IMG/VR virus record: IMGVR_UViG_3300034062_005626
From: a virus
Taxonomy: Duplodnaviria > Caudoviricetes
Strand: one strand, 5' to 3'
DNA length: 64,000 nt
The stretch's first letter is position 1; every line of letters begins with the position of its first letter. The translations under genes and the position numbers were made by a program. Shown here one piece after another: positions 10,730 through 62,430 of this stretch. The notes under the pieces are model-generated. The model ran no database searches. It was given only the letters and a program-made list of their open reading frames with translations, and was not told the origin of the DNA.

Positions 10730-11197
10730 ATGAAAAATTTAGATTATATTATTAAAAAAGTAATTAGAGAGACACAAGAAGAAAATTCTTCAAGATATAT
10801 GTTCTTTTCTAATTTACAACAAATGAGAAGACAATGTGATATGTTGTTAGAGATGGACCATTCTATGATAGAAAACATTTTAGAAAATGGTCACGATTGG
10901 GCTCAAGACCATATTGCCGAAGCAAAAAATAACATGGACCAAGTATTTGACTTTTTAATGAATGAAACTAAAAAAGACAATATGAACATGTCTATGAATT
11001 TTGACAACGAAGATATAATGATGTCAGAAGGTAGAAAAAAAACCGGAACTAAATTATGTGCTCGTGGTAAGGCATCTGCAAAGGCAAAGTATGACGTGTA
11101 CCCCTCAGCTTACGCAAATGGCCACGCAATACAAGTATGTAAAGGTAAAGTAAAAGGGTTAGACGGTAAAAAAAGGTGTTCACCACCTTATTGTTAA
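10730..11197 (+). CDS. leader-bearing protein with basic Cys-rich C-terminal domain (AKAKYDVYPSAYA)
   Basis: Leader MKNLDYIIKKVIRE; C-terminal basic domain with 4 Cys of a kind seen in T4-like phages. Confidence 0.7.
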   Translation: MKNLDYIIKKVIRETQEENSSRYMFFSNLQQMRRQCDMLLEMDHSMIENILENGHDWAQDHIAEAKNNMDQVFDFLMNETKKDNMNMSMNFDNEDIMMSEGRKKTGTKLCARGKASAKAKYDVYPSAYANGHAIQVCKGKVKGLDGKKRCSPPYC

Positions 11198-11907
11198 ATA
11201 TTATTCAATATACGATTAATAATAATATCTAAGGACTCATTTTGGGTCCTTTTCTTTTTTGGTTTGTATGAAGTCATAATAGGTTTTTGACCTTTACCTG
11301 TTTGTGTGTCTTTGGACTCCGCCTTTCTTTTTTGTTGACAAGCCGCTCTTTTTTCTGAATCACTCATTTTACCCGCAACTCCAGCTGCTCTACATTTTGG
11401 GTATGCCCCTTTATTTGTATCAGGTCTACCACAAGGAGGATGTTTACCGTCGACTTTTCTACAAATATTAACCCATGGACCTTTTGGTTGGGATGAACCT
11501 TTTGGTTTTTTCTTTTTACCAAACCATACGGCCAAATCTTCATTAAGTGTAATTTTATCTAATTCTACCCATTCTTTTATGGGTACTATTTTTTTGTTTC
11601 TACCTGGTGTAGGATTGATTGGACCGCCTTCTTCATCACTAGGACGTGTATGTGTTTTATTATATTTATTTATTTTTTTTGATTTTTGTTCTAATCTTTT
11701 AATTTTATTTTTACTTGATTCCATAGAACCGTCGTAACTATCATATTCTAAATCAGCATTGTAATATTTTGATACTTTTTTAGTAAATGGGCCAAGTTCA
11801 TCATCATCCCAATCCATTTCACCCATTGTGAGAGGGCCATTATAATAACCTCCATATCTACTTGTACTGGCCTCTAATAATATTTTCTTTACAATTTTTT
11901 TAATCAT
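11194..11907 (-). CDS. leader-bearing protein with basic Cys-rich domain (WVNIC..PCGR..YPKC)
   Basis: Leader MIKKIVKKILLE; LNE|DLAVWF then a Lys/Cys-rich domain. Confidence 0.75.
   Translation of the reverse strand: MIKKIVKKILLEASTSRYGGYYNGPLTMGEMDWDDDELGPFTKKVSKYYNADLEYDSYDGSMESSKNKIKRLEQKSKKINKYNKTHTRPSDEEGGPINPTPGRNKKIVPIKEWVELDKITLNEDLAVWFGKKKKPKGSSQPKGPWVNICRKVDGKHPPCGRPDTNKGAYPKCRAAGVAGKMSDSEKRAACQQKRKAESKDTQTGKGQKPIMTSYKPKKKRTQNESLDIIINRILNNI
11231..11260 (+). terminator. probable intrinsic terminator embedded in antisense CDS
   Basis: AAGGACTC-ATTTT-GGGTCCTT hairpin followed by T-rich tract, about 35 nt after the stop of 10730..11197. Confidence 0.5.
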
Positions 11908-11930
11908 ATTAATAAATATTTGTTTAATAA

Positions 11931-11958
11931 AAAAAGGTCAGATTAATCTGACCTTTTT
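11931..11958. terminator. bidirectional intrinsic terminator after major capsid gene
   Basis: Perfect inverted repeat AAAAAGGTCAGAT-TA-ATCTGACCTTTTT. Confidence 0.85.
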
Positions 11959-11980
11959 CTTATATTAACCTTTAAATTGA

Positions 11981-13852
11981 TTATCTCAATTCGTTTAAGT
12001 CAAATGAACGAACTCCATCAACTGTGATACGTCCGTAGAAACGGTTATTAACCATTTTCTTAGCGTATCTTGTCATAATACCTTTGATAGGTGTAAAGTT
12101 GAATGGGTTGTACATTGTAGGTGTTAATTGTAGAGGTACATATGGTGCGTAAACGTAACCTGTATCTAACAATGACGTTCCTTTGTGTCCTAACAATACT
12201 TGGTTTGCTGGGAAGTAAGGGTCACGGTATACTTGGTAACGACCTGCTAATGTACCAACTCTTTCAATACCCATATTGTATTGGTCTTGCTCAGGAGATG
12301 CGTTAGATACGTGGAAGTATTCTAAGTCATCAAAGATTGCAGAAACCTCAGAAGAAACAACAATCCAGTTTGCTCCACCTCTCAAAGTAGATTTGTGGAT
12401 TTGTGCAGACAATTGGTTGATTGCCGTAATTAAAGTTTGGTTCCAGTCTTTTTGAGTATAAGAAGTTGTGTTAGACAATCTTCTCCATCCGTTGTAATCC
12501 CAACGTAAGTTCCAAGCCGCTCCTTTACGTAAGTCACGAAGAATTTCACGGTCAATCTCTGCAGCCACTTGCTCAGATAATAAAGCTGTTAATTCAGCCT
12601 CAGCGTCGATGTTATGGAATGCAGAAACGTCTTGTGCCAATTCAGGAGACCATTGTGCTCTTAGTTTTCTTTCTGTAACTGATACAGTAACTGACTCAAG
12701 GTCAAAAGAAACCTCACCAATTTGGTCTTCAAATTCTAATTCTTTGTAACGTCTCCAAGCGGCCATAATAATTGTGTTACCTTGAGTTCCTGACCAAGAA
12801 GATGCGGTTAAAGTTGCTCCTGAATATCCGTCGATTGTAGCTGCGTTAGTACAAGAAACACATACGGGTACTTGTGCGTCGATTTCTAAGTAGATAAATC
12901 CTGTTTGAGAACAAACGTTGTCATAGTAACCACCATTACCACCTGTAGATGATGTACCAAAAGGGGCTTGTGTTAAAGTTGAAGTAGGTCCTACGATTCC
13001 TTGTCCATACTTCTGAGTAACAACTCTATAAAGTAGTGGTGTGAAAGTAGACGTACCAAGGTTTGAAGCCGCTGTAGAATTTGGAGTATAAAGTACAAGA
13101 TTAGATAAGAAGGATTCTGTATCCATTTCTTGTCCATCAGGTCCAATAAGTTTTCCAAGACCAGCATTTGTAAATCCAGATAATGCAACTAAGATTTTTC
13201 TGTATTCTAAGTTACTAGATGTTGTATAAGCTGAAGCAACTAATGCTCCGCCAGACCAAGCAACTGTAGGTGTAAAACCTGTTACAGTTACGAATTGACC
13301 TTTTGAGTAATCAAACAAACCTGCTGGGTTTAATCCTGGTTCTGCTCCTTCATAAAATAAATCATAAAGATTTTTTTGGTACGTTGAATTGTAGTCACCA
13401 GTTCCTGTTGAGTATCCAGCTTGTGTGTTAGTGGACGGGTTACTTGGCGAACCAATAGGTGCATAATGGTCACCTGAAACAACTCCTACAGTGTTTGTAA
13501 TAACACCACCAGAATATCCTTGGATTTTAGGGATAAAGTAGAACAATTTACCGATAGGTAAGTTCATTGCTTGTACCGATACTAAATCATTAGCCAATAA
13601 TTTAGAGAATACACGTCTAACGATAGGGAAAACTACAGTTTCGAAAGAACCTGAACTATCTGAAGACGCAGCTTCGTTAATTAGGTGAGACGCTTGGTTT
13701 TCATATAACTGTGCCATGTTCTCTTTGATGTGTCCTTTAAGACCGTCTAGGAATCCTAATCTATCCCATTTGTTAATTGTATCTTCTTTGATAACTTTAA
13801 GGTGTTTTAACCCGATGTTACCAACAAGACCTGATTCTAATAATGCTCCCAT
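11981..13852 (-). CDS. major capsid protein (T4 gp23-like)
   Basis: VFPIVRRVF..L.ANDLVSVQAMNLPIG, ERKLRAQWSPELAQD, DAEAELTALLSEQVAAEIDREI, YVYAPYVPL, KGIMTRYA. Confidence 0.97.
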   Translation of the reverse strand: MGALLESGLVGNIGLKHLKVIKEDTINKWDRLGFLDGLKGHIKENMAQLYENQASHLINEAASSDSSGSFETVVFPIVRRVFSKLLANDLVSVQAMNLPIGKLFYFIPKIQGYSGGVITNTVGVVSGDHYAPIGSPSNPSTNTQAGYSTGTGDYNSTYQKNLYDLFYEGAEPGLNPAGLFDYSKGQFVTVTGFTPTVAWSGGALVASAYTTSSNLEYRKILVALSGFTNAGLGKLIGPDGQEMDTESFLSNLVLYTPNSTAASNLGTSTFTPLLYRVVTQKYGQGIVGPTSTLTQAPFGTSSTGGNGGYYDNVCSQTGFIYLEIDAQVPVCVSCTNAATIDGYSGATLTASSWSGTQGNTIIMAAWRRYKELEFEDQIGEVSFDLESVTVSVTERKLRAQWSPELAQDVSAFHNIDAEAELTALLSEQVAAEIDREILRDLRKGAAWNLRWDYNGWRRLSNTTSYTQKDWNQTLITAINQLSAQIHKSTLRGGANWIVVSSEVSAIFDDLEYFHVSNASPEQDQYNMGIERVGTLAGRYQVYRDPYFPANQVLLGHKGTSLLDTGYVYAPYVPLQLTPTMYNPFNFTPIKGIMTRYAKKMVNNRFYGRITVDGVRSFDLNELR

Positions 13853-13885
13853 TTTTTAATTTTTTTTAGAGTTTATTTTTATTTT

Positions 13886-15298
13886 TTATTTTATTTTGTT
13901 CATTAAATCCTTCATTCTCATAAATTGAGGATTTTCATAAGCTTTAGATTCAATCAAGTTTGATGCTGAACCATTACTTGGAGTTTTAACAACTTTTTGT
14001 GCAATTGATTCGTTCATCATAGAACTTGGTGACTCACCAATTTCTTCTTTGATTGTTCTGTAAAGTGATTTTGATTCTTTCAAAGATTCAACAGTGTCAA
14101 ATCTTCTTAAGATGTTGATTTTTTCTTGTTTTGTTGTTGAGTGTTCTGTAAACAATCTAGTAGCGTAAGCCAAATTAGAATTGAAAATTGCAACTTCATT
14201 TAATTTATTTCTAAAAAAGTCTAATGCTTTTCTATACTCTTCATTTTTTTCTCTTAAAGATTCCAATTCACGAGATTCAAACGTTAAATTTCTGTTTGGT
14301 GTGATTCCCTTTCTTAAACCTCTACCTTTTTTAGAACCATTTCCATAAGTTCTAGCAGCTTCAGTTGCTTCAACGTCATCATCTTCCTCTTCGTCCATCC
14401 ATCCGTCTGAAATTTCATCTTCGCCTGTTTCAGTAACACCGTGTTTCAATTTTGAAGGATAAATATTGGTTTTAAGTTTTCCAATTTTACCTTTCGCTTT
14501 AAACGCCTCAACAACATTTTCAAGTGATTCTTGGTCGATTTCATAAACTTCTTCATCCATGCCCATATCTTCGTTATAGTCCATTTCATCCATGTACGTT
14601 TCATCCATGCCCATTTCTTCGTTATAGTCCATTTCATCCATGTACGTTTCATCCATGCCCATTTCTTCGTTATAGTCCATTTCATCCATGTACGTTTCAT
14701 CCATGCCCATATCTTCGTTATAGTCCATTTCATTCGACATCGAATCGTCTTCAAAAACCAACTCATATGTTGTATTTTCAGCCATGTTTTCGACAGGTTG
14801 TTCTGTTGGCATTTCAGGTTCGTCAACTTCCATACTGATTAGATATTCGGTATTTGCTTTACCGTCTTTCAAGTGAACATAGTTTCCATCTTTTTGAATG
14901 ATAAAACCGTCCTCATCTCCCATCGCTTTGAAAACTTTCATAACGTCGGACATTGGTGATTTTGTCATATCAAGTGGAGGTAGTTCTTCAGTTGGACCTT
15001 CAGGAGCTCCTTCCATACCATTATCAGTACTTGGTGCCGGTAGTGCTTCCACTTCCTCTTCACCTGATACTTCTACTTCTTCTCCTTCTTCTTCTGAACC
15101 TTGTGGTTGTTCACCACCTTGTGCTTGTTCTTTTAAGGATTTTTTGGAACCCATTATAGATTCCCTTACTAATTCGCCGATTTCTTGTTTCATGGTTGAA
15201 GCAAGTATTCCTTTTGCATTTTCACTAATCGCCTCTTCGATAGACTTCATTTGTAATAAAGCCTCCTCTACTAACGATTCTGATTTTCTGTTACTCAT
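13886..15298 (-). CDS. prohead core scaffolding protein (gp22-like)
   Basis: Acidic, coiled-coil, between protease and MCP; many (I/L/V/M)-x-E sites; C-terminal NEVAIFNSNLAYATRLF segment. Confidence 0.8.
   Translation of the reverse strand: MSNRKSESLVEEALLQMKSIEEAISENAKGILASTMKQEIGELVRESIMGSKKSLKEQAQGGEQPQGSEEEGEEVEVSGEEEVEALPAPSTDNGMEGAPEGPTEELPPLDMTKSPMSDVMKVFKAMGDEDGFIIQKDGNYVHLKDGKANTEYLISMEVDEPEMPTEQPVENMAENTTYELVFEDDSMSNEMDYNEDMGMDETYMDEMDYNEEMGMDETYMDEMDYNEEMGMDETYMDEMDYNEDMGMDEEVYEIDQESLENVVEAFKAKGKIGKLKTNIYPSKLKHGVTETGEDEISDGWMDEEEDDDVEATEAARTYGNGSKKGRGLRKGITPNRNLTFESRELESLREKNEEYRKALDFFRNKLNEVAIFNSNLAYATRLFTEHSTTKQEKINILRRFDTVESLKESKSLYRTIKEEIGESPSSMMNESIAQKVVKTPSNGSASNLIESKAYENPQFMRMKDLMNKIK
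14552..14733 (-). repeat. 48-bp tandem repeat (about 3.8 copies) encoding EMDYNE(D/E)MGMDETYMD
   Basis: Units start at 14552, 14600, 14648, 14696; nearly identical. Confidence 0.95.
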
Positions 15299-15659: not shown

Positions 15660-16370
15660 TTACTTTCCTAAATAATCGGACAATCTTTTCATTAAGTCAA
15701 CAGATTTTTCTAATCCACCACCACTAACTGAAGTATTATCATGTTCTGCCAATTTTTCTTCATATCTTGGTCTATCTTCAGCGTTCAAATAAAGATAAGC
15801 TCCTGGTGTAGATGGTGATGATACAAGGTCAAAACAAATTAATTCAAAATCCTCCTGTACCTCATTTTGGTCTCCTTTTTTTACTAAAGACCCGACCCCA
15901 CGAGAAGATACTCCCATAGTGACTCCTTGTCTCATAAGATTTGCTGCAACATCTCCCTTAGATGTTACAATTCCTCTTTCGTGAAAACCGGGACTTGTTA
16001 ATAATTTAATTTTTCCCATCAATACATTTCCTTCCCACCACGTTTCAGTTATAAGGTGAGAAACTCTATCTAAATCCACTAAAGAAGATTCGGGGTGATT
16101 TAATTCAGAAATTGACATTCCTTTTTTAATGACCTCTTGATATTTTTCAGCCTCTCTTTTTAATATTTTTTCAGGGTATACTCTACCGTTTCTATTTGGA
16201 ACTCCCCATTTTTGAAGTGTTGCATAAAAAACAAACGGTTTAGAATGGTCTAACTGACCATAAGATTCTCTAATCAAATTTTGGTTTCTTGGTTCATTTG
16301 GATTTATAATACCAGCATCCCATTCAACTAGAATCCCTTTACCCGTGTCTTTTGGTCCTAAAATTTTCAT
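15660..16370 (-). CDS. prohead core protease (T4 gp21-like)
   Basis: NRNGRVYP, ELNHPES (catalytic His), GVSSRGVGS (catalytic Ser), FDLVSSPSTPGA. Confidence 0.95.
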   Translation of the reverse strand: MKILGPKDTGKGILVEWDAGIINPNEPRNQNLIRESYGQLDHSKPFVFYATLQKWGVPNRNGRVYPEKILKREAEKYQEVIKKGMSISELNHPESSLVDLDRVSHLITETWWEGNVLMGKIKLLTSPGFHERGIVTSKGDVAANLMRQGVTMGVSSRGVGSLVKKGDQNEVQEDFELICFDLVSSPSTPGAYLYLNAEDRPRYEEKLAEHDNTSVSGGGLEKSVDLMKRLSDYLGK

Positions 16371-16390
16371 AATATTTTTATTGATAAATA

Positions 16391-17136: not shown

Positions 17137-17369
17137 TTTTTATTATCCTTTTTTTTGTTGGTAAAAAAATCTACGGATGTCAATCCTAAAGTCCCAAACG
17201 CTAATAATCCAATTGTTTCTATTAAAATTTCAGGAGCCTCATATCTTCCACAACTAAATAAAGAAACGAATAAAGATATTATTAAAGAAAAAGTACATAA
17301 TAGACCAATAAATCTTTTAGAGGATATGCCACCGTTTGCCCCCTCCATCATGTTTTTAAAAAATTTCAT
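17121..17369 (-). CDS. two-TM membrane protein, possible holin
   Basis: Two hydrophobic segments after ISSKR, charged C-tail. Confidence 0.5.
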   Translation of the reverse strand: MKFFKNMMEGANGGISSKRFIGLLCTFSLIISLFVSLFSCGRYEAPEILIETIGLLAFGTLGLTSVDFFTNKKKDNKNQEES

Positions 17370-18106
17370 TATAAACCTTCTTGGAGTTGTCTTAACTTAT
17401 AGTAATTGTAAAAATCAACAGGTGAGTTTTGTATTTTGGTTACAGTTTTTTCAATTGTATTTTTTAAATCACTTTCAGTAGACTCGTTTATTTTTACTTT
17501 TAAGTTTTCAATAATACATTCCTTTAAGTTTTCCATTCTATTTTCTAACTCAGTTTTAGATAGAGAAACTATTTCTTTAATATCATTTTTTTCACTTTCT
17601 GACAAATTAGTAATTTCATCATTAAGTTTTGAGTTTGCAACTTTCAACATAGTCTCTAAAGGTAAGTTGATAGATTCTTTGATGGTTACTTCTTTTTTAG
17701 GTGTAGATAAAGTTTTAGATATTTGTTTTTTTGATTCTAAAATATTTTCAAGATTTTTAATAGAATTGTTATAAATCACATTATCGATTGTTTCGTAAAT
17801 ATTTTTTACATCCCCATGTAAATTGATTCTATTAATCCATGAATTAATTCTACTTAATTCTTTATTATTATTTTCAACCAAAATTTGTGAGTACTCTACA
17901 GACTCATTAATATAGTCATTAACTAAGTCTACTGATATACCTTTATTTTCTGTCAAATCATTATAGATATAATAAAGTTCCGCAATGTCTTTATTTTCCA
18001 AAACAATCTTTTTGAATTGATTGCTGAAAAATTTAAACTCATCCTTACCATATAAGTTAATGAAAGTTTCGTCTATTTTAGTTTTTATTTCACCAAAAGT
18101 TGCCAT
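17369..18106 (-). CDS. hypothetical head-module protein
   Basis: 245-aa helical ORF downstream of portal with multiple INE/IKE/LSE sites. Confidence 0.75.
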   Translation of the reverse strand: MATFGEIKTKIDETFINLYGKDEFKFFSNQFKKIVLENKDIAELYYIYNDLTENKGISVDLVNDYINESVEYSQILVENNNKELSRINSWINRINLHGDVKNIYETIDNVIYNNSIKNLENILESKKQISKTLSTPKKEVTIKESINLPLETMLKVANSKLNDEITNLSESEKNDIKEIVSLSKTELENRMENLKECIIENLKVKINESTESDLKNTIEKTVTKIQNSPVDFYNYYKLRQLQEGL

Positions 18107-21773: not shown

Positions 21774-22406
21774 TTAAATTCTACTTCTAAAATTTCTTAA
21801 AAGTTCTCCTTTTGTAAAGTGAGTTGGTATATGTTTTTGTACTATTGATAAAATACTTTCTTCTAATTTTTTTACATCATCCTCTTCAACTCTTTTTGGT
21901 AGACCTTTGTGTTTTGTGGATGCAAAATCTTCTAATTCTTTTTTAGACATTTCTTTTGCCATGTTTTGAACTTTTTTAGAAACCTTGGATTTTGGAGTAT
22001 CCCCTTTTTTAACAGAAAGAGCTAATCCCATAATTTTTTGTTGTTGTCTAGAGACCGCTTTTTCTTCAAGTTCTCCTTCAATCGACATTCCGTCATATTC
22101 ATCACCAAATCCATCATCTGAACCAGGTCCAGAATAATTATCACCCGTTTCATATGGGTCGTTTCCTGCCATTCTATTTAATGCGAAGTCATCTTCTTCA
22201 AGTTCTTCTTCATAAGTAACAAATGATTTACCGGCAGATTTGGCCTTAGCCTCTTCAGGGGAACCTTTTTTAACATTAAGTGTCCCTTCTTGCTCCATAA
22301 TTCTACGGTATAAAGAAGATAATTGTTTTTCTGATAGATTTTCTAATGTTTTAATAGAAAACCCTTCATGAAGTAATTTTTGAAGTTTATAATTCATGTG
22401 TTTCAT
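21774..22406 (-). CDS. leader-bearing protein with DUF3008-like domain
   Basis: EKAVSRQQQKIMGLALSVKKG...MSKKELEDFASTKHKGLP matches the DUF3008 pattern. Confidence 0.7.
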   Translation of the reverse strand: MKHMNYKLQKLLHEGFSIKTLENLSEKQLSSLYRRIMEQEGTLNVKKGSPEEAKAKSAGKSFVTYEEELEEDDFALNRMAGNDPYETGDNYSGPGSDDGFGDEYDGMSIEGELEEKAVSRQQQKIMGLALSVKKGDTPKSKVSKKVQNMAKEMSKKELEDFASTKHKGLPKRVEEDDVKKLEESILSIVQKHIPTHFTKGELLRNFRSRI

Positions 22407-49747: not shown

Positions 49748-52201
49748 TTATAAATATTTGTCAGCAAAATCTTTTGCACTTATTATGGTTTTATCTTCTA
49801 TTAATGTATTATCTAAATCATTAAGTTTTTTTACAACATCTTTAGCGTCATCTTCTTTTTCAAATCCATTTATGTTTGGTATTGTTTTAGGGTTTGCTTT
49901 CTTTATATCATTCAATGTTGCAGGTTCAGGTTTTTCATCTGTTGTGGCGGCATAATAAATTTTATATAAAACTGGGTCAGAAACATTGGTAGGGGCCACT
50001 TTAGCATAAAAATAAAATGGTTCATATGGTACTTTTTGAAACGAAAATTTGTAACTTTTACCATCTTGTGTTCCTAATTCACCGATAACCCGATATAAAT
50101 ATCCATTTTTATCTCTAACCGCACCATCTGTTATTGTGACATTTTCACTTATTTTTTCTACGTTTTTAGGATTTTTAAACACTTGTTTTACTTTATCAAG
50201 GTCTATGTTTAACGCATCCTCATTAACCGCTATATCTTTGTATACGACTAAAGATTTTTTAAATTTTTCTAAATCACTTTCTTTTAAACCGTTATATTTT
50301 AAAAATAATGTTTGGTTTTGGTTTTCTTTCATTACAAAATCATATAACCTCCCAAACGATTTAAAAATTCCTTGTGGTTCAGCAAACCCTTTTAATAATG
50401 CTTTTTGCTCCTCCTGCCCCATACTGCCCCACCATTCATCAAAAGCCTCATTTTTGGACATCACTAATTCGGATTTTGTTTTATCTGGGTCTTGACTTAA
50501 ATCTCTATGTGCACCTACTAAACCAGATTTTATTAAATTATATTCCCACTCAATATCAAAAGGTAATAAATCTGAAGTGTTAAATTCAGTGTATGCCTTT
50601 ACAATTTCATCCCATAATAACTCATAACCTGTTTTTTTTGTTTCAGATGAAATTCTATCTATTTCATTCTTTTCGAAACCAATCGCGATAAGGGTGTTTA
50701 TTGTTACAGGAACAATTATTAAAACCTTTTTAAAAACTATTAATTTTATATATTGCCATAAAAGATTTTGAAGAAATTTTTTCCATGAACCAAACCCTTT
50801 AGTCCCAAACATTTTACCTAATGTTTTAAAAGTCCTTATCTGACCAAAGAAAACTTCCATCCAAAAATTTCTCCAAGAAAACTCAAATGTTTTTATATAT
50901 TCTTTAATATTTTTAAATAACCCACTAATCCCATCTTTAAAGACACTTTTAACAAAATTTTTAAACTTTGTGAAATCTTCCATAAAAGAGCTAATTTGCT
51001 CTGCATTTTTAAGAACGCTCTCAGGGGTATTTGGGTATCTTGTTTTTAAATCTTGAAAATATTGTTTAAAAGATTCAGGTTTCCATTTTGGCATGATGTT
51101 GGAACCAGGTTCTCCATATATTAATGAATCTTCAATTGCTTTAACTAATTCCGTTTCACCTTCTTTTCTTAACTCAGCTAAAACTTCATCCCATATTTGT
51201 CTGGCATTTTTTTCAATACCATCAATTTGGTCAATATCGTATGCTATTGCCCTAACTAAAGATTGAAATTCTGTGGTTGGTGTTGTTGAGTTTTCTATTA
51301 CAATTTTTTCAGCTGGAAATGATTTTAATAAATTTAAGTTTTCGTCTAAAGACGCTTTTAACTCATCAAAAGTTTTTCCAATATTTTTAAATTTTTTAAT
51401 TAGGTTATTTAAAAATCTCCACTTACCACTAACTTTTTTTATATCCTCAATATTGGTTACAGGTTTTTCATCGTAAGTCAATCCCTTCTCTTTTTGCCAC
51501 CCATCAAGGTCAGTTTCTATTTTTTTGTCTAACCAGGTTTCTAAACGGTCAAAATTTTTATCACCTGATTTGAATGGTATTCCTTTCGCTTTCAACTCAT
51601 CTTCAAAATACCCTTTATAAAATTCTTTTAATTCTTTTTTATTTGGTTTTTTTGCACCCCCAAGATATTCATCGTCAATAAGTTTTTCCATTTCAAAATA
51701 TGAATCACTATAAGCCTGATACACTTTACCATCAGGGTTGTCAAAAACTTTATTTAACGCACTATCAACAGAATTTATAAACATTTGATTATTGTCTATA
51801 GAAGCCCCTCCTTTTGCATTTTGTACTTTTATTTTAAAATCATTAAATTTTTTATAAAAACTACTAGGGTTTGTACTTAAAGACCCCAATTTATCGGCTC
51901 TAGCAGCATTTGCAATCTCTGTTTTTTGATTTTTTAAACCTTGAGCCATATCATCTATTTCTTGAGCAGTTAATTTAACTACCTTAGACCCTTTCGGTAT
52001 TAAGTCATTCAATCCATTTAATAATTTTTTTACATCATCAACCGATTCAAATGCCTCATCCGCATGAATTAAAAGTTTTCCTAATTGTGTGATTGGAGGA
52101 CCTCCCTCATTTAAAATATGACTATTTGTGGGAAAATTTTCTTCTTTTAACCCCATTAAGGATTTTGCCCTATTAATTTCTAATATTAAATTATTATTCA
52201 T
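49748..52201 (-). CDS. large leader-bearing helical protein with hydrophobic segment (possible ejection protein)
   Basis: Leader MNNNLILEINRAKSLMGLKE...ILNE|G; hydrophobic VLIIVPVTINTLIAIGF. Confidence 0.65.
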   Translation of the reverse strand: MNNNLILEINRAKSLMGLKEENFPTNSHILNEGGPPITQLGKLLIHADEAFESVDDVKKLLNGLNDLIPKGSKVVKLTAQEIDDMAQGLKNQKTEIANAARADKLGSLSTNPSSFYKKFNDFKIKVQNAKGGASIDNNQMFINSVDSALNKVFDNPDGKVYQAYSDSYFEMEKLIDDEYLGGAKKPNKKELKEFYKGYFEDELKAKGIPFKSGDKNFDRLETWLDKKIETDLDGWQKEKGLTYDEKPVTNIEDIKKVSGKWRFLNNLIKKFKNIGKTFDELKASLDENLNLLKSFPAEKIVIENSTTPTTEFQSLVRAIAYDIDQIDGIEKNARQIWDEVLAELRKEGETELVKAIEDSLIYGEPGSNIMPKWKPESFKQYFQDLKTRYPNTPESVLKNAEQISSFMEDFTKFKNFVKSVFKDGISGLFKNIKEYIKTFEFSWRNFWMEVFFGQIRTFKTLGKMFGTKGFGSWKKFLQNLLWQYIKLIVFKKVLIIVPVTINTLIAIGFEKNEIDRISSETKKTGYELLWDEIVKAYTEFNTSDLLPFDIEWEYNLIKSGLVGAHRDLSQDPDKTKSELVMSKNEAFDEWWGSMGQEEQKALLKGFAEPQGIFKSFGRLYDFVMKENQNQTLFLKYNGLKESDLEKFKKSLVVYKDIAVNEDALNIDLDKVKQVFKNPKNVEKISENVTITDGAVRDKNGYLYRVIGELGTQDGKSYKFSFQKVPYEPFYFYAKVAPTNVSDPVLYKIYYAATTDEKPEPATLNDIKKANPKTIPNINGFEKEDDAKDVVKKLNDLDNTLIEDKTIISAKDFADKYL

Positions 52202-52237: not shown

Positions 52238-54655
52238 TTATTTTTTGTTTAAAACAGTGTCAACTAATTGAAATTTTTTTACTTGGTCTTCCATGTTGTT
52301 ACCAAAATTCATATTCATCCAATAATCTACAACTTCCATACTGTCTTTTTTTTGCTCATCTGTTAAAGTATTAGGGTCCGGTTCTTTTTGTGTGTTTTCC
52401 CAGTTGTCGATTAAGTTTGATAATGCTAATTCTAATATTTTTTTATTTTCTTCTTCTTTATCTATTTTTAAATTTGTTATATTTTTTATAGTCGCCCCTT
52501 CTGTTAAATCATAAATTAAGGCCGACAATGTTTTGGAATCAACTTTTCCTGTCTGTTCTAATCCTTTATTTTTTTGATAAACTTCAACCATTGTTTTTGT
52601 AATATCATCAAAATAACCCCAATTTACTCTTGATTTGGCTCCACCTTCAGAAAATAGCCCACCTGTTATACTTTCTAAAGACAAGTTATTATTTATTAAA
52701 CCACTTTCTTTTTTTGTACCATTTTTATACTCAAATTTTAATTTAAAACTTGGGGATAAATTTATTTTTTTTGAAGTGACTTCTTTTTTTCCCATAGGTC
52801 TTATGGTGTCAACTACACGGTCACCAGGGATTGTGTTTATTATTTCTATTTTATTTATAGAACTAACATTAATTAACGTTAATTTTGAGTTTTGATAATT
52901 TCCTAATGTGCCCATGTTTTTAGCAACTAGTTTTGAAATTAAATTTGAAGATTTAGTTTTTCCCTTACTTCCATCGAAAAAATTTTCAATTTTATAATCA
53001 ATACCCATTAAAGGTACCCCCACAACTTGAGCCAACATAGACTGTAACATTTCAACTTCGATTTCATATGAATTTTTATATCTGTCACTCATGACAACAT
53101 TTTTTTGTAACATGGTTTCAAAAGTGCTCTTAAGTAAAAAATTAAATAATCTTTGTTTATCTAGTTGGATTTTTTTAGCTTCCTCCATTAATTTAATTTC
53201 TGCAAGTTTTTTACATTCTTCGGGCGAACTAGTAAAAGGTTGAGGGTTTAACTGTGTTATAAGTTCATTTTTTCTGTCATTGATAATCTTTTCGTACGCA
53301 ATATCCCCTTTGTATTTTTTTGTCTCTACTCCAATAATTTTAGTAAGCTCATCCCAATTAAAAGTTGCAGAGCATTTTCCTAAATTATTGTAAGCCCACC
53401 AATCATAACTATATGTAATACCCCAAATTTTATAAATGGTTCTCATAAAACTATTATTCCAGCCACTAGATTTTGCCACTTCATTCACTAAGTCTACTAC
53501 AAATTTTGCTCCTTTACTTTTTAAACCTGCTTGTAGAATTTTATTAAAATTTTTCTTTAATTTTGGTAAAATAACTTTTGGGTTTAATATATCTTTCATA
53601 AATTCTTTCTCAACAGAAGTTAATGTTTCTGGAGTTTGACTAATAAGTTTTTTTGATATTTCATTTAAAGCCTTTTTTTCTGTTCCTGCAATTTTTGCTA
53701 GTTTGGCAAAACTTTTAAACGAGTTTAATTCTGAGAATGGTATTAAAGCCATCGCAAACGTAAAACCCGCCAAATAAGGGTCTTCATCATAAAATTCATA
53801 AAGAGCTGCATCTATCATTTCTAATGCTGAACCAACCACAGGACCTGCGGGAGGAAAGAAATTTAACATTAAACTTATTATCGGTATAATTGTATGGTAC
53901 GCAGAAACGTATGAATCAAAATTAGGTTCACTAGATGATTTATATGTATCAACAACTTTTCTAACCACATCTCCCGATTCAATGTCACGGTTTAACATAG
54001 GTTGTTTAAATGCGTTTACAGTTTTTATGTTTGACACTGCAACAGGTATGTTTATTTGGGAACCTGGGTTTCCTGGTGAAGAACCAAAAAAACTATTTAA
54101 AAAATTCCAAGGGCCTCCATCAAAAAGGTCTATATTTTGTGTTAATTTAGGGTAGTTGAAATAAAAGTCTTGTAAAACAAAAGTGTTATATATATTTCTA
54201 CTTTGAATTTGTGTGTCATCAACACCAAGTCCCGACTGTTTTGTAGGGTATAATTGTTGATTTAATGTATCTATTAGATTTTGGTCAAACTTACTAAATT
54301 TCCATTCACCTCCTGATTTACCACCCAACACATTTACTTTAAAAAAAGAATCCAAGGTTGTGTATTGAATTTCATTAAACAAGAGATTTGTTAAATATCT
54401 CATGGCTGATAATGCCGCGTCATTGTACGCATCAGTTCCCGAATTGTAATTTGGACACCCCCAAACCCAATAACTTTTTGGTATTTTAAAAAAACCTAAT
54501 TGAAATAACAAAGATTTTACACTCGCAGCCTCTTTAGATTTACACCACTCAGATTCACTTAAAACTATTTCTCTATTCTCAATAATAGTTTTACTTCTAT
54601 CGAAATTAATAAGTGATAATTGCCTTAAAATTTCTTCATGTAAATTGTCTTTCAT
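52238..54655 (-). CDS. large leader-bearing protein with hydrophobic hairpin and C-terminal peptidoglycan-binding domain (possible ejection protein)
   Basis: Leader ..IVLSE|SE; IIPIISLMLNFFPPAGPVVGSAL / LAGFTFAMALIP; GYFDDITKTMVEVYQKNKGLEQTGKVDSKTLSAL (PG_binding_1 pattern). Confidence 0.7.
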   Translation of the reverse strand: MKDNLHEEILRQLSLINFDRSKTIIENREIVLSESEWCKSKEAASVKSLLFQLGFFKIPKSYWVWGCPNYNSGTDAYNDAALSAMRYLTNLLFNEIQYTTLDSFFKVNVLGGKSGGEWKFSKFDQNLIDTLNQQLYPTKQSGLGVDDTQIQSRNIYNTFVLQDFYFNYPKLTQNIDLFDGGPWNFLNSFFGSSPGNPGSQINIPVAVSNIKTVNAFKQPMLNRDIESGDVVRKVVDTYKSSSEPNFDSYVSAYHTIIPIISLMLNFFPPAGPVVGSALEMIDAALYEFYDEDPYLAGFTFAMALIPFSELNSFKSFAKLAKIAGTEKKALNEISKKLISQTPETLTSVEKEFMKDILNPKVILPKLKKNFNKILQAGLKSKGAKFVVDLVNEVAKSSGWNNSFMRTIYKIWGITYSYDWWAYNNLGKCSATFNWDELTKIIGVETKKYKGDIAYEKIINDRKNELITQLNPQPFTSSPEECKKLAEIKLMEEAKKIQLDKQRLFNFLLKSTFETMLQKNVVMSDRYKNSYEIEVEMLQSMLAQVVGVPLMGIDYKIENFFDGSKGKTKSSNLISKLVAKNMGTLGNYQNSKLTLINVSSINKIEIINTIPGDRVVDTIRPMGKKEVTSKKINLSPSFKLKFEYKNGTKKESGLINNNLSLESITGGLFSEGGAKSRVNWGYFDDITKTMVEVYQKNKGLEQTGKVDSKTLSALIYDLTEGATIKNITNLKIDKEEENKKILELALSNLIDNWENTQKEPDPNTLTDEQKKDSMEVVDYWMNMNFGNNMEDQVKKFQLVDTVLNKK

Positions 54656-54658: not shown

Positions 54659-54979
54659 CTATGTTTTATATTTACCAGTTTTACCAAAAGTTCTTCCTGA
54701 AGACCATTTTTCACCGGCCTTATTCAACATGTTTCCCTTTCCTCTTGTTACTTTATCTTCTTTTTTACCACCTAAAGAATTTGCAGGTCCTCTAGCGACA
54801 CCTGTTTCCCATTTTTCTATCGAAGGGTAACCTGTTGATGCTCCACCTCCACCTGAAGCGGCGGCACCACCTTCCTCATCTTCTAAAATGTCAGATTCAT
54901 CAAGTTCAACTTCTTCATCTTTTTTTTCTAAAAGCATCAAACTTAAAATTCTATTTATATTTTCAACTAACACTTTCAT
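54659..54979 (-). CDS. small leader-bearing protein with basic W/RG repeats
   Basis: Leader MKVLVENINRILSLMLLE; KWETGVARG / VTRGKGN / KWSSGRTFG. Confidence 0.75.
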   Translation of the reverse strand: MKVLVENINRILSLMLLEKKDEEVELDESDILEDEEGGAAASGGGGASTGYPSIEKWETGVARGPANSLGGKKEDKVTRGKGNMLNKAGEKWSSGRTFGKTGKYKT

Positions 54980-55281: not shown

Positions 55282-55282
55282 T

Positions 55283-55753
55283 TTATTTGTTTATATAAAA
55301 ATTTATTACACGTTTTACAGATTCTTCTATATTATCAATTTTATTTTGTAAATCTTCATCGTCATCCACTAAGTCATCAAATTCTTCATCATCTTCTAAT
55401 TCAAAAACATCTACAGGTCCTTTTGATTTAAATCGGTATGCTGGTTTTTGATTATTAACGTTATAAAAAGTCATTGACTGTTGAGGTCCTCCTGATTCAA
55501 AATCATATGCCGGTTCAATTTCATCATAATTTAATGGTTTTGCCGTAATTTCATTTATTTTATGATTTTGATAAACTTTAACCGTATTGTTGTTTGTTAC
55601 AGTTACTCCGTTTAAGTCTTTTCTATCGTCATACACAGTCAACGGATACATATTACCATTAACATTTTGTGTTGCATATCCGTCATAAACTGAAGAATGT
55701 TGTCTTATAATATCTTGTTTTTCATTATCTGAAAGTTTAACTGGCCCTCTCAT
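55283..55753 (-). CDS. hypothetical protein with leader-like N-terminus
   Basis: VKLSDNEKQDIIRQH resembles the IISESEKKKIL leader of 45731..48853. Confidence 0.7.
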   Translation of the reverse strand: MRGPVKLSDNEKQDIIRQHSSVYDGYATQNVNGNMYPLTVYDDRKDLNGVTVTNNNTVKVYQNHKINEITAKPLNYDEIEPAYDFESGGPQQSMTFYNVNNQKPAYRFKSKGPVDVFELEDDEEFDDLVDDDEDLQNKIDNIEESVKRVINFYINK

Positions 55754-58945: not shown

Positions 58946-59028
58946 GATTTTATGTTATATTAAAAAATAGACAATTTTCTTTTACAGTCAATTTTTTATT
59001 ATATCGTGTATCTGTATATTTATTTTAT

Positions 59029-59709
59029 ATGACGAAGTTAAAGTTACTTGGTAGTCTTGTTGATACAATAAAAGAACAAGGGTTGGGTAGATACTCAGGC
59101 TTTTATGTTGCAACACCTCCAATTGAGGGTGAGGAGCCAATAGGTTATGATTATGATGAAAATGAACCGCTGACAGTGTCAGATGTTGAAAATTTTGGAG
59201 AGGTGACTGATGAGGAGGTAGAAGAAATTTCAAAACTTGACACTTTTCCGGCAAAAGGAAAATGTAAAGAATGGTCACACTTATCTAAAAATGGTAAAAA
59301 AAATGGTGAGTTAAGTTCTTCTGAATTACAGACTTTAAAACATCATACAGAGCACCAACTAAGTGTTGAAGCCGCAAAAAACTTTGACAAATTAGAAGAT
59401 AAATTTATACAAAAGTATGGTAGAAAAATAAATAATTTTACCGATTCATATAGGCCATATTTGGTTCAATGGGATAAATTTGATTGGAATAAATGTATAA
59501 AAACCGGAAAACCTATAAAAAAAGAAACTGAAAATATTACTATTTCTTATCCTGGCACATCTAATCACGGTTGGGGTGAGGCTGTTGATATTTTTGACTC
59601 AGATTGGCAAAAATTCGCTAAAGAACACGGAAAAAAATATGGTTGGTGTTGGGGGGAAAACAAAAGTGAATCTTGGCACTTTACTTATGATTTAAGTTAT
59701 TGTTCTTAA
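59029..59709 (+). CDS. leader-bearing M15 (VanY-like D,D-carboxypeptidase / endolysin-type) zinc peptidase
   Basis: DSYRPYLVQ, PGTSNHGWGEAVDI (SxHx6D), ESWHF; leader MTKLKLLGSLVDTIKE. Confidence 0.9.
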   Translation: MTKLKLLGSLVDTIKEQGLGRYSGFYVATPPIEGEEPIGYDYDENEPLTVSDVENFGEVTDEEVEEISKLDTFPAKGKCKEWSHLSKNGKKNGELSSSELQTLKHHTEHQLSVEAAKNFDKLEDKFIQKYGRKINNFTDSYRPYLVQWDKFDWNKCIKTGKPIKKETENITISYPGTSNHGWGEAVDIFDSDWQKFAKEHGKKYGWCWGENKSESWHFTYDLSYCS

Positions 59710-59712
59710 AAA

Positions 59713-59743
59713 TTTGTAGATTAATAAAAAAAGTTTATTTTTG
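59713..59743 (+). promoter_or_regulatory. Bacteroidota sigma-70 promoter TTTG-N19-TATTTTTG
   Basis: -33 at 59713-59716, 19-nt spacer, -7 at 59736-59743. Confidence 0.75.
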
Positions 59744-59760
59744 TATAAATAAATTAATCT

Positions 59761-60081
59761 ATGAAAACGACACCACAAGAAGAAGCTGAAGTTTATAAAA
59801 ACTACCCAAAAAAACGTCTAAAAAAAGTAATCGCCACTTATAAGTTTTTTAAACTTTTAAATGACGATACTTTAAATTTTGTTTTTTCTTTTTTAACCGT
59901 TATTGTTCCTCAAATTTTAATTTTTGGTTTCAGTTTTGGTATTTTATTATTTTCAGTTTTATTTCACTTTTTTGTTTGTTGGTTATACATGGTGAAATAT
60001 AAAAATATCAAATTAGTTACTGATGAGGAAAAAGAAGAAATCGTTGTAATTCTTAAAATTTTAAAAGATTACCTAAATTAA
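59761..60081 (+). CDS. small membrane protein
   Basis: Long hydrophobic segment(s) at about aa 38-78. Confidence 0.7.
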   Translation: MKTTPQEEAEVYKNYPKKRLKKVIATYKFFKLLNDDTLNFVFSFLTVIVPQILIFGFSFGILLFSVLFHFFVCWLYMVKYKNIKLVTDEEKEEIVVILKILKDYLN

Positions 60082-60755
60082 TAGAAATATCTTTCATCCA
60101 TTCCACCTCTTCTTCTTGAGGCCTTTTTATCTTCAAGAAAATCTTTTGATGCTCTACCTTTGAAATACATTATTACACCTAATACTGCAATATAAAATGC
60201 AAATGGACCACAATGTCTTGAACATCCAGAACTTTGAACGATGTCATATACCATGTCTAAAAATTTGAAATCGACGTGACCTGGAATTTGAGATATAAAT
60301 GCTAAACCTGCAACACCCAATAAACCTACACCACCAAAGATATTTGCTCTTGCTATAATTGATTTAATTCTATCAAATTTTCCTTCAAATAGGTAAGATT
60401 CAGATACTACTCCAATAATATCTTCAATTTTTTCTGATGCCTTTTCTTCTCTATCTGATAGTTCTTCGTCTACACTATTTTCCAATTCATCTACAACTCT
60501 ATCAATATTAATTCGTGAAGCCATTCTTGATAAATCACTTAGTTCATCATCGTCCATTTCAGGGGCAATCATCTCTCCAAATAATTTAGATACTTCTTTT
60601 GCCGCTCCCATAATGTCAAAATAACCACCTCTATCTTTGAAATCCATTTTCATAGACATTTCATCTTCCATTTCGTCTTTTGCCTCACGTACCATTTTTT
60701 TAATTAATCGGCTTAATTGAGCCTCATTTAATGTAAATTCAATTCTTCTTTTCAT
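60078..60755 (-). CDS. leader-bearing two-TM membrane protein
   Basis: Leader MKRRIEFTLNEAQLSRLIKKMVRE; hydrophobic IFGGVGLLGVAGLAFI and FAFYIAVLGVIMYF. Confidence 0.75.
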   Translation of the reverse strand: MKRRIEFTLNEAQLSRLIKKMVREAKDEMEDEMSMKMDFKDRGGYFDIMGAAKEVSKLFGEMIAPEMDDDELSDLSRMASRINIDRVVDELENSVDEELSDREEKASEKIEDIIGVVSESYLFEGKFDRIKSIIARANIFGGVGLLGVAGLAFISQIPGHVDFKFLDMVYDIVQSSGCSRHCGPFAFYIAVLGVIMYFKGRASKDFLEDKKASRRRGGMDERYFY

Positions 60756-60759
60756 TTTT

Positions 60760-61254
60760 TTATTTTAAAAATCTTAGTTTATATATTGTCGAGTTTATTA
60801 ACTCAATTATTGTATCAATTTGATTTTGTAAATATGAATCCTCACAACAATCTCTTAAGTTGTCAACTTGTTTACATAAATTTTTCATGTATTCACAAGT
60901 TTTTTCAGTACTTTGCCAATCTTGTATTTCCATTGTTTCATAACCTTTTACAATACCATATTTTCCTTGGTAAGATTCAATTAAACCATCAACCAATGCA
61001 TCCACACCTTCATAATAGTTTTGTGTTGCTTTATGTTCTGAATAAGATTGTGTTTGTAAATGTAGTGTGTGTACTTGTGTTTGCGAATGTAAAAGAATTG
61101 AGGCTAATTTTGCGAAATCACCTGAAACACCCTCGTCACCCATTGACTCATCTTCCATTTCAAAATCTTGCGTTTCAAAATCTTCCATTTCTTGTTCACT
61201 CATAAGATTTTTTATGTTGAACTTTCTATTTAATAGTTGTTTTTTTGTAATCAT
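60760..61254 (-). CDS. leader-bearing ferritin/Dps-like four-helix protein (DUF5856-like)
   Basis: HSQTQVHTLHLQTQSYSEHKA..YYEGVDALVDGLIESYQGKYG; LQNQIDTI. Confidence 0.75.
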   Translation of the reverse strand: MITKKQLLNRKFNIKNLMSEQEMEDFETQDFEMEDESMGDEGVSGDFAKLASILLHSQTQVHTLHLQTQSYSEHKATQNYYEGVDALVDGLIESYQGKYGIVKGYETMEIQDWQSTEKTCEYMKNLCKQVDNLRDCCEDSYLQNQIDTIIELINSTIYKLRFLK

Positions 61255-61268
61255 ATTTTTTTTATTTT

Positions 61269-61282
61269 ATATTTATAAATAT
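61269..61282. promoter_or_regulatory. palindromic late motif ATATTTATAAATAT shared by divergent genes
   Basis: Perfect palindrome in a 26-bp intergenic gap between two divergent leader genes. Confidence 0.65.
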
Positions 61283-61901
61283 GTCGTTATTAAAAGAAGT
61301 GTATAGAATCCAAAAATTGATGAATATAACTGAATCAATAAATATGTCCAATTCTATATTTGAAAAGTTTGACATTGATGAGTTTAAAAATTTTCCACCT
61401 CCATCGGATGATAGTTCAGAAACAAAAAAAGAAATTGAGTTTTTAAAAAGCATTGATTTGAAACAAAAATTCGTTCAAAAAAAAGATGACATTGAAGGTA
61501 ATTTTATTGAACTATTAAAAAAACATGGAATTAATGAAAAAAAACTTGTTAATAAATTATCCAAGGATGTAAGAAAAATAATTTTAGAACTCAAATTATT
61601 TTATAAAAGACCAAGACCTTTTAGGTTGGATAGTAAATTGAATGATAGATTATTAAAATCAATGGAAGGTTTTGCATACCCATCAGGTCATTCAACACAA
61701 TCACATTTATTATATTATGTTTTATCTGAACTATATCCAAATTTGAAAACAGAATTATTGAAAGTAACTGAAGATATTGTTTTTTCTAGACAAATGGCAA
61801 AAGCACATTACCCTTCAGATATTAAATTTGGAAAAAAACTTGCAAAATCTTTGTTTGATTATTTGAAAAAAAACAAATTGATTAAATTAAATCAGGAATA
61901 A
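61281..61901 (+). CDS. leader-bearing PAP2/class A acid phosphatase (vanadium haloperoxidase fold)
   Basis: K..YKRPRP, YPSGHST, SRQMAKAHYPSD catalytic motifs; leader MSLLKEVYRIQKLMNITE. Confidence 0.9.
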   Translation: MSLLKEVYRIQKLMNITESINMSNSIFEKFDIDEFKNFPPPSDDSSETKKEIEFLKSIDLKQKFVQKKDDIEGNFIELLKKHGINEKKLVNKLSKDVRKIILELKLFYKRPRPFRLDSKLNDRLLKSMEGFAYPSGHSTQSHLLYYVLSELYPNLKTELLKVTEDIVFSRQMAKAHYPSDIKFGKKLAKSLFDYLKKNKLIKLNQE

Positions 61902-62430
61902 TTTTTTCTTCAACAAAATATTCAACTTCATCAATAAGTTGACCTAGTTCATCGGTTAGAAACGCCTCTTCATCACCTTGTGGTTTTGAAGATGGGTCAT
62001 TTGCATCATAAGTTAAAAAGTCACCAGTGTCCTCAACAAAATCTAACATACCCAAGGTTTTGTCTTCATCAACCACAATACACCCTATCCATTCTCTATT
62101 ATCCCACATTACAGTTCCAAACAACATTTTAACTCCCATGTCCTCTTCATCGTAGTCAAATTGAAATGAAAAAATGCTTTTATCGGCCAACTCTGTTTCC
62201 CAAGTTTCACCTGATTTATCATCAATTTCCTGATTATCATTTGGCTCATCAGGTACGAACTCGCCCCTTTGACCCGATTTCAAATGTTCAGAATATTTGT
62301 TTAATGTTGATTTTTCTTGTGATGTTAAATTTTCATAACCCACTTTACTCATTTTATCTAAAATATCGTCAATTACCGGTATGTTTTCCAATAAAATTTT
62401 ATATTGTGATTCTGTGATAATAAATTTCAT
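61882..62430 (-). CDS. leader-bearing protein with DUF6576-like helical motif
   Basis: Leader MKFIITESQYKILLE then IDDILDKMSKVGYENLTSQEKSTL. Confidence 0.65.
   Translation of the reverse strand: MKFIITESQYKILLENIPVIDDILDKMSKVGYENLTSQEKSTLNKYSEHLKSGQRGEFVPDEPNDNQEIDDKSGETWETELADKSIFSFQFDYDEEDMGVKMLFGTVMWDNREWIGCIVVDEDKTLGMLDFVEDTGDFLTYDANDPSSKPQGDEEAFLTDELGQLIDEVEYFVEEKIIPDLI

Follow-up and report, generated by a model that had tools for sequence, protein, structure and literature searches.

Unrelated proteins of an uncultured tailed phage share an N-terminal leader that may serve as a capsid-targeting tag

In a stretch of 64,000 nucleotides of tailed phage DNA from the IMG/VR database (Duplodnaviria; Caudoviricetes; record IMGVR_UViG_3300034062_005626; this whole stretch is hereafter called the window), at least 16 unrelated, predicted late proteins start with a short, charged amphipathic leader that in most cases ends in a hydrophobic residue, any residue and glutamate. 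The leaders form a genuine family, and the reading that we favour and regard as probable, albeit with considerable doubt, is that they represent an expanded, longer and multi-class analogue of the capsid-targeting sequence (CTS) of bacteriophage T4. In T4, an N-terminal CTS of about ten residues takes internal proteins into the scaffolding core, and gp21 removes the CTS after L/I-x-E; the residues for targeting and processing are genetically separable, and the CTS loads foreign proteins (PMC9958956, PMC9026906, PMC3012670). The internal proteins found in T-even phages form a diverse anti-restriction set sharing only the CTS (PMC3012670, PMC9026906). An earlier note, made from the letters of the window alone, had proposed a system of this kind on the basis of 16 quoted N-termini, and all of these are indeed present in the sequence at the respective gene starts.

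Results

The leader family was detected independently of any motif. Genes were called in the window and in 110 related loci, and the 1170 resulting proteins were clustered into 182 body families by their residues from position 46 to the end. The N-terminal 40-mers gave 432 cross-family pairs that involve 97 of the 182 body families, as compared to 9, 11 and 9 family pairs (13-15 families) for the control segments 46-85, 86-125 and the C-terminal 40 residues, respectively; a smaller first run of this test gave the same picture. The largest N-terminal component comprises 172 proteins from 71 families and corresponds to the charged amphipathic leader. Relatives were also gathered with UvrC as the anchor, and a search for related loci with the 817-residue protein 49748-52201 returned no relatives.

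Two other sources of N-terminal similarity were considered and rejected. The Sec and lipoprotein signal peptides of Bacteroidota cause cross-family similarity in the same data set as well; however, they form separate small clusters with uncharged cores, whereas the leaders are charged and amphipathic. In the leaders, uncharged runs extend over 2-7 residues at most, as compared to 13-17 in the genuine signal peptides at the same loci, and since the leaders are devoid of a hydrophobic core the signal peptide reading was discarded. A compositional artefact of the AT-rich genome (about 30% GC in the window) is ruled out by the control segments and by invariant positions (L7, E9 and E22) in the leaders.

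A profile built from three paralogs of the window alone found no further matches because it was too narrow, but profiles built from diverse relatives worked, and they define three classes. Class A (MKKIVRLTESDLxRIVKRVIxE) has 99 profile matches in 38 body families, 84 of which begin within the first 12 residues. Class B (MKKLYFLxEsEKxRILNLHExATKxQYLxE and shorter forms) has 58 matches in 30 body families, and class C (..EEIxRIKxLMxLxE and variants such as LRLINFDRSKTxLEQ) has 23 matches in six body families; the matches of both classes are all N-terminal. Together, the three classes cover 74 of 226 body families in the profile search. When 28 class-A leaders taken from many body families, which are 36-88% identical to the first, are aligned without gaps, M1, L7, E9 and E22 are invariant. 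Within one orthologous family (the orthologs of 10730-11197), short and long leaders of 14 or 22 residues alternate, and on another single body family class-B and class-C leaders alternate. Scanning the window and its relatives with the leader profiles gave no match on DnaK, the ClpC-like protein, UvrC, glycosyltransferases, the portal or the large terminase (TerL).

The motif on which that note had relied, (I/L/V/M)-x-E within the first 35 residues, turned out not to be diagnostic: It is present in all 16 candidates, yet also in 29 of the 42 other N-termini of the window. DnaK, the ClpC-like protein and one glycosyltransferase have it, as do 40% of internal 35-mers, and by the note's own standard of refutation this loose form of the motif fails. 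The stricter pattern h..hh.E (h, hydrophobic) does discriminate, with 11 of the 16 candidates, 3 of the 42 other N-termini and 7% of internal 35-mers. The claim that the bodies behind the leaders are unrelated was confirmed, as 18 leader proteins of the window are mutually unmatched (blastp, E<0.01), and evidence from profiles or orthologs backs 15 of the 16 listed examples, 31211-32356 being the weak one.

The end of the leader is marked by a conserved glutamate. Class-A genes were fetched from IMG/VR by a DNA pattern that covers residues 1-12 only, and at least 114 stretches yielded 131 unique proteins. Among these listed matches, residue 22 is Glu in 123 of the 131 proteins, although this position was not selected for; it is preceded by VI, VL or II, i. 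e. by hydrophobic residues at P4 and P3, and followed mostly by Q, N, E, S or D. By blastp, the bodies of the 131 listed proteins form 105 clusters, and the median length is 146 residues. The three window paralogs agree at 50-60 of the 66 nucleotides that encode the leader, as compared to 16-17 of the next 54 after Glu22; for the genes at 29447 and 33607, 60 of 66 identical nucleotides are followed by about 30% identity. About 60 homologs of the 34243 protein have an invariant leader and, between it and the conserved cargo, a linker of 0-30 residues in which A, T, G, P and Q are abundant. The same boundary is found in two head-module families (arrows mark putative cleavage sites). In the 120 best of more than 3600 homologs of the basic protein adjacent to the major capsid protein (MCP), the leader has 7-14 residues and hhxE↓A(N/D/T)S..RYxGxYNGPL is constant. 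In a second head-module family in the relatives, the leaders are diverse, and all end in E↓APIDYEGPERM.

Identical leader residues are encoded by the same codon in 60% of the cases, and 50% are expected from codon usage. Since codon sharing is only near this expectation, the leader is conserved at the level of the peptide. The helix of the class consensus is amphipathic, with a hydrophobic moment (muH) of 0.70 as compared to 0.30 +/- 0.15 in shuffled sequences, and an AlphaFold 2 (AF2) model of the 34243 product (pLDDT 77) places the leader helix at residues 9-21 with a break at residues 22-24.

The leader is widespread in uncultured phages. A 292-kb record that is 99% complete contains 16 class-A profile matches, ten of them in one 12-kb island; a 273-kb record contains 12, and records of 274-412 kb that were found via the leader alone contain 7-14 each. 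In a library of 1.84 billion protein cluster representatives, the class-A profile has 9125 matches at E <= 0.001 and 582 at E <= 1e-10, and 138 of the 150 best matches begin at residue 1. The class-A genes form islands of small ORFans; most cargoes have 70-200 residues, and Pfam domains are present in only 3 of the 105 cargo clusters. An S77 protease is encoded in nine out of ten large leader-bearing records. The leader has no Pfam family, tblastn of the bare leader against 50,697 GenBank phage records including T-even phages gave no match, no class-A leader is present in Flavobacterium phage immuto, and a literature search on the leader sequence returned no paper describing the tag.

The window, moreover, encodes a head module of the T4 type on the minus strand. 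Pfam identifies TerL (19992-21767), a gp20-type portal (18129-19958), a prohead protease of the S77/T4 gp21 family (15660..16370; Peptidase_S77, 1.3e-23) and an MCP of the gp23 family with 623 residues (11981..13852; Gp23, 6e-73). The protease matches the structure of T4 gp21 (5JBL) at 7e-15, and a conserved GIL(V/I)E near its N-terminus recalls LIE-9 of T4. The protein encoded between the protease and the MCP (13886..15298; 470 residues, 24% acidic) occupies the position of T4 gp22; as Pfam gave no match, its putative identity as the scaffold or core protein is taken from synteny. A small protein of 245 residues between the portal and the protease (17369..18106) is a possible core protein, judging only by its position. 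The MCP aligns with solved structures of T4 gp23; the segment between its two T4-aligned parts comprises about 200 residues as compared to about 45 in T4 gp23 (residues 105-304 of the MCP and 126-172 of the T4 protein) and is thus a large insertion domain.

The N-terminal propeptide region of the MCP contains VIKE23, HIKE44, LYE50 and LINE60↓A, and the site that had been noted earlier at E60/A61 is thus correct. The spacing of IKE44↓N from a conserved motif is that of E65↓A66 in T4, and LINE60↓A is located eight residues before this motif; either or both of the two sites may be used. The statement that the scaffold and the protease are full of such sites holds for the former: [ILVM]xE sites are enriched in the putative scaffold (28 vs 17.2 +/- 3.4 in shuffled sequences, z 3.2) but not in the protease (6 vs 5.2). 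The core-position protein 17369..18106 is enriched as well (15 vs 8.1 +/- 2.1, z 3.2), and no enrichment over shuffled sequences was found in the MCP, the portal, the terminase, DnaK, the ClpC-like protein and a glycosyltransferase.

About half of the genes of the window, including head, tail and leader genes, are preceded by the sense motif TATTTAT 11-49 nt upstream of the start codon. The 31 sites upstream of genes (e. g. 16384-16390, 11912-11918 and 61270-61276) make up about half of the copies, and they include those of the protease (-20), of 17369..18106 (-21), of the putative scaffold and of tail genes. The proposal that nearly all leader genes carry this motif or follow a gene that does was corroborated: 11 of the 16 have it in sense orientation at 11-49 nt, and the other five are located in gene runs behind a motif-bearing gene. 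Of 143 class-A genes elsewhere, 103 have TATTTAT in the 60 nt upstream. The motif is informative by its upstream position only, since the window overall shows no excess of it (59 matches vs 45 +/- 7 expected). It is a candidate late-promoter element and differs from T4 TATAAATA.

The leader genes of the window are named here by their first coordinate. Evidence from profiles, cross-family links or orthologs assigns 10730, 11194, 21774 (with its second helix), 29447, 33607, 34243, 60078 and 61882 to class A and 45731 and additionally 55283 to class B; 49748, 52238, 54659, 60760 and 61281 are class C or C-like, and 59029 is linked to this class via another member of the VanY family.

Among the class-A genes, three encode canonical leaders with Glu22. 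The first of them (29447..30100, -) starts at the ATG at 30100, has a leader of 22 residues (profile 1e-11; TATTTAT at -27) and an ORFan cargo that gave neither a Pfam match nor a usable lead in the ESM Atlas. The second (33607..34155, -; profile 3e-12) also has an ORFan cargo, with no tblastn match in GenBank phages and no usable fold match in the ESM Atlas. The third (34243..34677, -) encodes a product of 144 residues whose cargo contains a GxGTDE motif, and all of its roughly 60 homologs keep the leader. The top PDB matches of the AF2 model of this protein are mostly annexins, over 47-63 residues with a root-mean-square deviation of 2.5-3.0 A and 27-34% identity, none of them at E <= 0.001; Pfam did not find an annexin domain in the product, and the model is thus suggestive of an annexin-like cargo. 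Short class-A leaders are encoded by 10730..11197 (+; MKNLDYIIKKVIRE, putative P1 Glu14), with profile matches in 31 of 34 orthologs, a Cys-rich C-terminal domain in the body and a match to PHROG 27331 at the C-terminus, and by 11194..11907 (-; MIKKIVKKILLE, Glu12; TATTTAT at -11). The latter gene is located directly after the MCP gene; its product is very basic (51 K+R, 29 D+E) and has a C-terminal amphipathic helix, and some orthologs end in a full class-A helix. A third short leader, MKFIITESQYKILLE15, precedes a DUF6576 cargo (61882..62430, -; profile 2e-4; TATTTAT at -11); 11 of 15 orthologs have N-terminal profile matches, and in relatives the same body is found behind full-length class-A leaders. 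The gene 60078..60755 (-) encodes a class-A variant (..LNEAQLSRLIKKMVRE24; profile 3e-7) with one hydrophobic segment in the cargo according to hydropathy. Finally, 21774..22406 (-), beside the terminase gene, encodes two helices, ..LQKLLHE14 followed by LSEKQLSSLYRRIME38, in front of a DUF3008 body (Pfam); both helices are conserved in orthologs, where the class-A profile matches residues 24-41 with E-values down to 2e-6.

The class-B gene 45731..48853 (-; ..ISESEKKKILGLYQLLKE24; profile 5.6e-8; TATTTAT at -15) encodes a cargo of 1040 residues with MORN, CarboxypepD_reg and immunoglobulin (Ig)-like domains (Pfam). It follows just after 39796-44805 (-), the gene for a 1669-residue protein with collagen triple-helix repeats (Pfam, 9e-115), which is probably a fibre; the 40-44 kb block that includes this gene has 44% GC as compared to about 30% elsewhere. 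A class-B-like start outside the original list is present in 55283..55753 (-; MRGPVKLSDNEKQDIIRQHS), with profile matches in 10 of 14 orthologs (best 3e-4).

In class C, 49748..52201 (-; ..LEINRAKSLMGLKE20 and ILNE32; profile 9e-7; TATTTAT at -17) has an 817-residue cargo, and its N-terminus is linked to other families. The C-like leader of 52238..54655 (-; EEILRQLSLINFDRSKTIIE26), which precedes an 805-residue cargo with a PG_binding_1 domain (Pfam), is also present on two other body families; instead of the cleavage site IVLSE that had been suggested for this protein, the conserved candidate is h-x-E↓N/Q at about residue 26. The small acidic cargo of 54659..54979 (-) stands behind ..ENINRILSLMLLE18 (profile 1e-3 here and 8e-11 in orthologs, which retain EDIxRIxxLMxLxE). 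In 60760..61254 (-; MITKK...LMSE20; DUF5856 cargo according to Pfam; TATTTAT at -27), 15 orthologs retain MITKK as well as h-x-E↓Q/E, and a variable acidic linker leads over to the conserved body. The leader ..EVYRIQKLMNITE18 of 61281..61901 (+; profile 3e-10; TATTTAT at -11) precedes a soluble PAP2-type phosphatase (Pfam) without a transmembrane segment, and 11 orthologs retain EEIxRIKxLMxLxE. For 59029..59709 (+; ..LGSLVDTIKE16; VanY-type peptidase cargo according to Pfam; TATTTAT at -12), one close ortholog was seen, and the link is another member of the same body family that has a class-C leader. The labels proposed for the cargoes were thus partly correct: Pfam confirms PAP2, VanY, MORN and PG_binding, the supposed ferritin-like protein is DUF5856, and the annexin-like label is weakly suggested.

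The weak candidate 31211..32356 (-; TATTTAT at -13 and -31) starts with the nine residues MNKFSKIFE and an acidic run. This start is kept in 13 orthologs, as is the sequence that follows; no cross-family link was found, and the conservation is thus confined to its own orthologs. Between two leader genes, 30153-31214 (+) encodes an M42/M20-type aminopeptidase-like protein (Pfam, 1e-5) that is syntenic in the relatives, and we speculate that it might trim or recycle Glu-rich fragments of propeptides or the scaffold.

Discussion

Judged at the level of the sequence, every testable prediction for a targeting and cleavage tag of the T4 type was borne out, and for this reason we read the leaders as an analogue of the CTS. 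The original proposal is partly supported; what does not fit is a simple removable tag, given the second copies of the module and the start of 55283, which has no clear Glu. By analogy with T4, we infer binding, cleavage, packaging and injection of the tagged proteins: The amphipathic helix of 12-30 residues, ending in hydrophobic-hydrophobic-x-Glu, would bind a component of the prohead core, and the tagged protein would thereby be co-assembled inside the prohead. The S77 (gp21-type) protease would cut after the Glu of the leader and free the cargo from the core; the cargo would stay in the head with the DNA and be delivered into the host at infection.

The likeness to T4 is manifold. As with the CTS of IPI, IPII and IPIII and the propeptide of Alt, an N-terminal tag ending in hydrophobic-x-Glu is present on unrelated, fast-evolving proteins. 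A protease of the S77/gp21 type is encoded, the N-terminal propeptide region of the MCP contains the same motif, and the predicted late cargo genes are clustered in variable islands, as in the internal-protein locus of the T-even phages (PMC9958956, PMC9026906, PMC3012670). In contrast to the CTS of about ten residues, the leaders have 12-30 residues, and their basic amphipathic part is preceded by L-T-E-S-D-L, an invariant acidic patch; they occur in at least three classes and also as internal and C-terminal copies, and the tagged genes number at least 16 in 64 kb, with 16 of class A in one relative, instead of a handful.

The phiKZ-like giant phages, of which SPN3US is an example, offer a second comparison: Their large head contains many proteins, and a prohead protease cuts off N-terminal propeptides after Glu (PMC10052503). 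The SPN3US protease gp245 cleaves after A-x-E, and some of the propeptides have 20-24 residues (PMC10052503). However, P3 is Ala, Ser or Gly in that phage and Ile, Leu or Val here, and the propeptides there mostly comprise 111-254 residues and do not have a single portable sequence in common. Unlike in this comparison, the MCP and the protease of the window match T4 gp23 and gp21 directly.

Several observations weigh against the capsid-targeting reading. No similarity between the tag and the T4 CTS was detectable, either by eye or in the tblastn search of the leader against GenBank phages including the T-even phages, and the tag is two to three times longer; because of this lack of similarity we regard it as analogous to the CTS rather than as a member of its sequence family. 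One leader-bearing record that is 93% complete has no S77 match, and the start of 55283..55753 has no clear Glu site when the orthologs are compared. The ClpC-like AAA+ protein is kept in all five relatives tested, and as it is equally conserved there, co-occurrence does not single out the protease. One tagged cargo of 817-1040 residues with Ig-like/beta-sandwich domains would also suit a surface protein. Finally, 48 of the 150 best library matches have a second copy of the module, internal or C-terminal, and the MCP-adjacent protein family ends in a related C-terminal helix. These copies complicate the model of a removable tag because cutting after the Glu leaves them attached. They are not fatal to it, since T4 Alt is processed at both ends (PMC9026906).

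The double class-A modules combine an N-terminal copy with an internal one, in which the MKK start is sometimes kept, or with a C-terminal one (P0121-P0162, L009:5165-5905 and L024:6089-6919). The retained MKK start of some internal copies suggests that they arose from fused tandem genes, and the proteins are possibly polyproteins or double-tagged cargoes. It is tempting to go one step further, although we consider this tentative and rather doubtful: The class-A helix of 22 residues might, together with its class-B and class-C relatives, be a position-independent 'load and cut' module that is active at either terminus of a protein as well as between domains, so that an entire clade of abundant freshwater jumbo phages would carry dozens of fast-evolving effectors in the head, some of them made as polyproteins that are cut in the capsid, and the helices might assemble, among themselves or together with the scaffold, into bundles that make up an inner protein body with no counterpart in T4.

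Conserved N-terminal anchors carry variable tail-fibre domains, and the helix might likewise be a docking or oligomerisation module that is never removed and joins variable proteins to a common partner at the virion surface, the baseplate, in coiled coils or in another late assembly; the terminal Glu would then be structural. The internal and C-terminal copies, in which the helix stays attached upon cleavage after the Glu, the heptad-like amphipathic pattern of the helix, and a large cargo with Ig-like, CarboxypepD_reg and MORN domains just after the collagen-repeat fibre gene would all suit such a module. We nevertheless regard this explanation as unlikely. An anchor does not predict hydrophobic residues at P3 and P4 and a Glu at the boundary between leader and linker (123 of the 131 listed proteins), which fits the specificity of gp21-type proteases, and most cargoes are ORFans of 70-200 residues in hyperplastic islands. 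Moreover, in the two head-module families the leader is reduced to as few as 7-10 residues, which is too short for a docking helix, and h-x-E is still located right before the conserved start of the mature protein.

It is much less probable still that the leader is a recognition tag for another enzyme or chaperone of the phage, be it the ClpC-like AAA+ unfoldase (27395-29437), DnaK or an enzyme like those modifying ribosomally synthesized and post-translationally modified peptides (RiPPs). The ClpC-like gene adjoins leader genes in the window and is present in 5/5 leader-rich relatives (41-85% identity), and the basic-hydrophobic pattern of the leaders resembles chaperone-binding motifs. According to work cited in PMC10052503, T4 propeptides are reported to recruit the chaperonin. 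Against this possibility, no modifying enzyme was noticed beside the leader genes in the window or in the loci of the relatives, where no systematic neighbourhood count was made, and such a tag would explain neither the conserved h-x-E boundary nor why the propeptides of head proteins end in the same site. A tag for the phage-encoded DnaK was rejected, as HSP70 is absent from 5/5 leader-rich relatives, including one that is 99% complete. The two chaperone genes have features of their own: 27395-29437 (+) encodes a two-ring ClpC/ClpB-like AAA+ protein without the Clp_N domain, and 25359-27215 (-) encodes a full-length DnaK.

That the conserved 5' ends are merely recombination cassettes of DNA (promoter plus first codons) encoding a peptide without function is highly improbable: The three window paralogs do share, besides the leader nucleotides, an upstream block with TATTTAT, and mobile regulatory cassettes are described for T4-type phages (PMC2839356), but 40% of the identical residues across families differ in their codon, close to what codon usage predicts, M1, L7, E9 and E22 are invariant across the 28 diverse leaders, and the peptide is kept in 9125 diverged cluster representatives. 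Shuffling of cassettes may, however, be the way in which cargoes are exchanged.

The window comes from a clade of T4-related jumbo phages that is abundant and uncultured, and the hosts are probably freshwater Bacteroidota. More than 595 contigs in IMG/VR have an MCP that is at least 73% identical; the records of relatives reach 292 kb when found via MCP or UvrC and 412 kb when found as leader-bearing contigs, and the relatives span 220-412 kb. A Bacteroidota host is indicated because phage genes have signal peptides and a CHU_C (type IX secretion) domain and because the closest cultured phage by MCP is Flavobacterium phage immuto (42% identity). Both features meet in 56471-58927 (-), which encodes a Bacteroidota-type signal peptide, SprB and PKD repeats and a C-terminal CHU_C type IX secretion domain. 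Several paralogous signal-peptide proteins are encoded beside the MCP in the relatives.

The principle of loading proteins into the head by an N-terminal tag is already known from T4, and the advance made here is therefore one of scale and variety rather than of kind. New are the sequence of the leader, its length with the invariant acidic patch, its division into three classes, the copies inside and at the C-terminus of proteins, and the scale, at about 9000 protein clusters. Proteins injected by phages along with the DNA are the first weapons against the defences of the host, and recognising them in uncultured phages is very difficult. Provided that the tag marks proteins that are packaged into the head, a single short profile would suffice to list the injection candidates of a very abundant clade of freshwater phages, and the 9125 cluster representatives, nearly all of which lack a known domain, would offer a wealth of candidates for anti-defence and host takeover. 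For the loading of foreign proteins into capsids, the tag would moreover provide a longer, possibly position-independent signal. Should the module indeed load and cut irrespective of its position, the injected proteome of thousands of uncultured phages could be read directly from their sequences.

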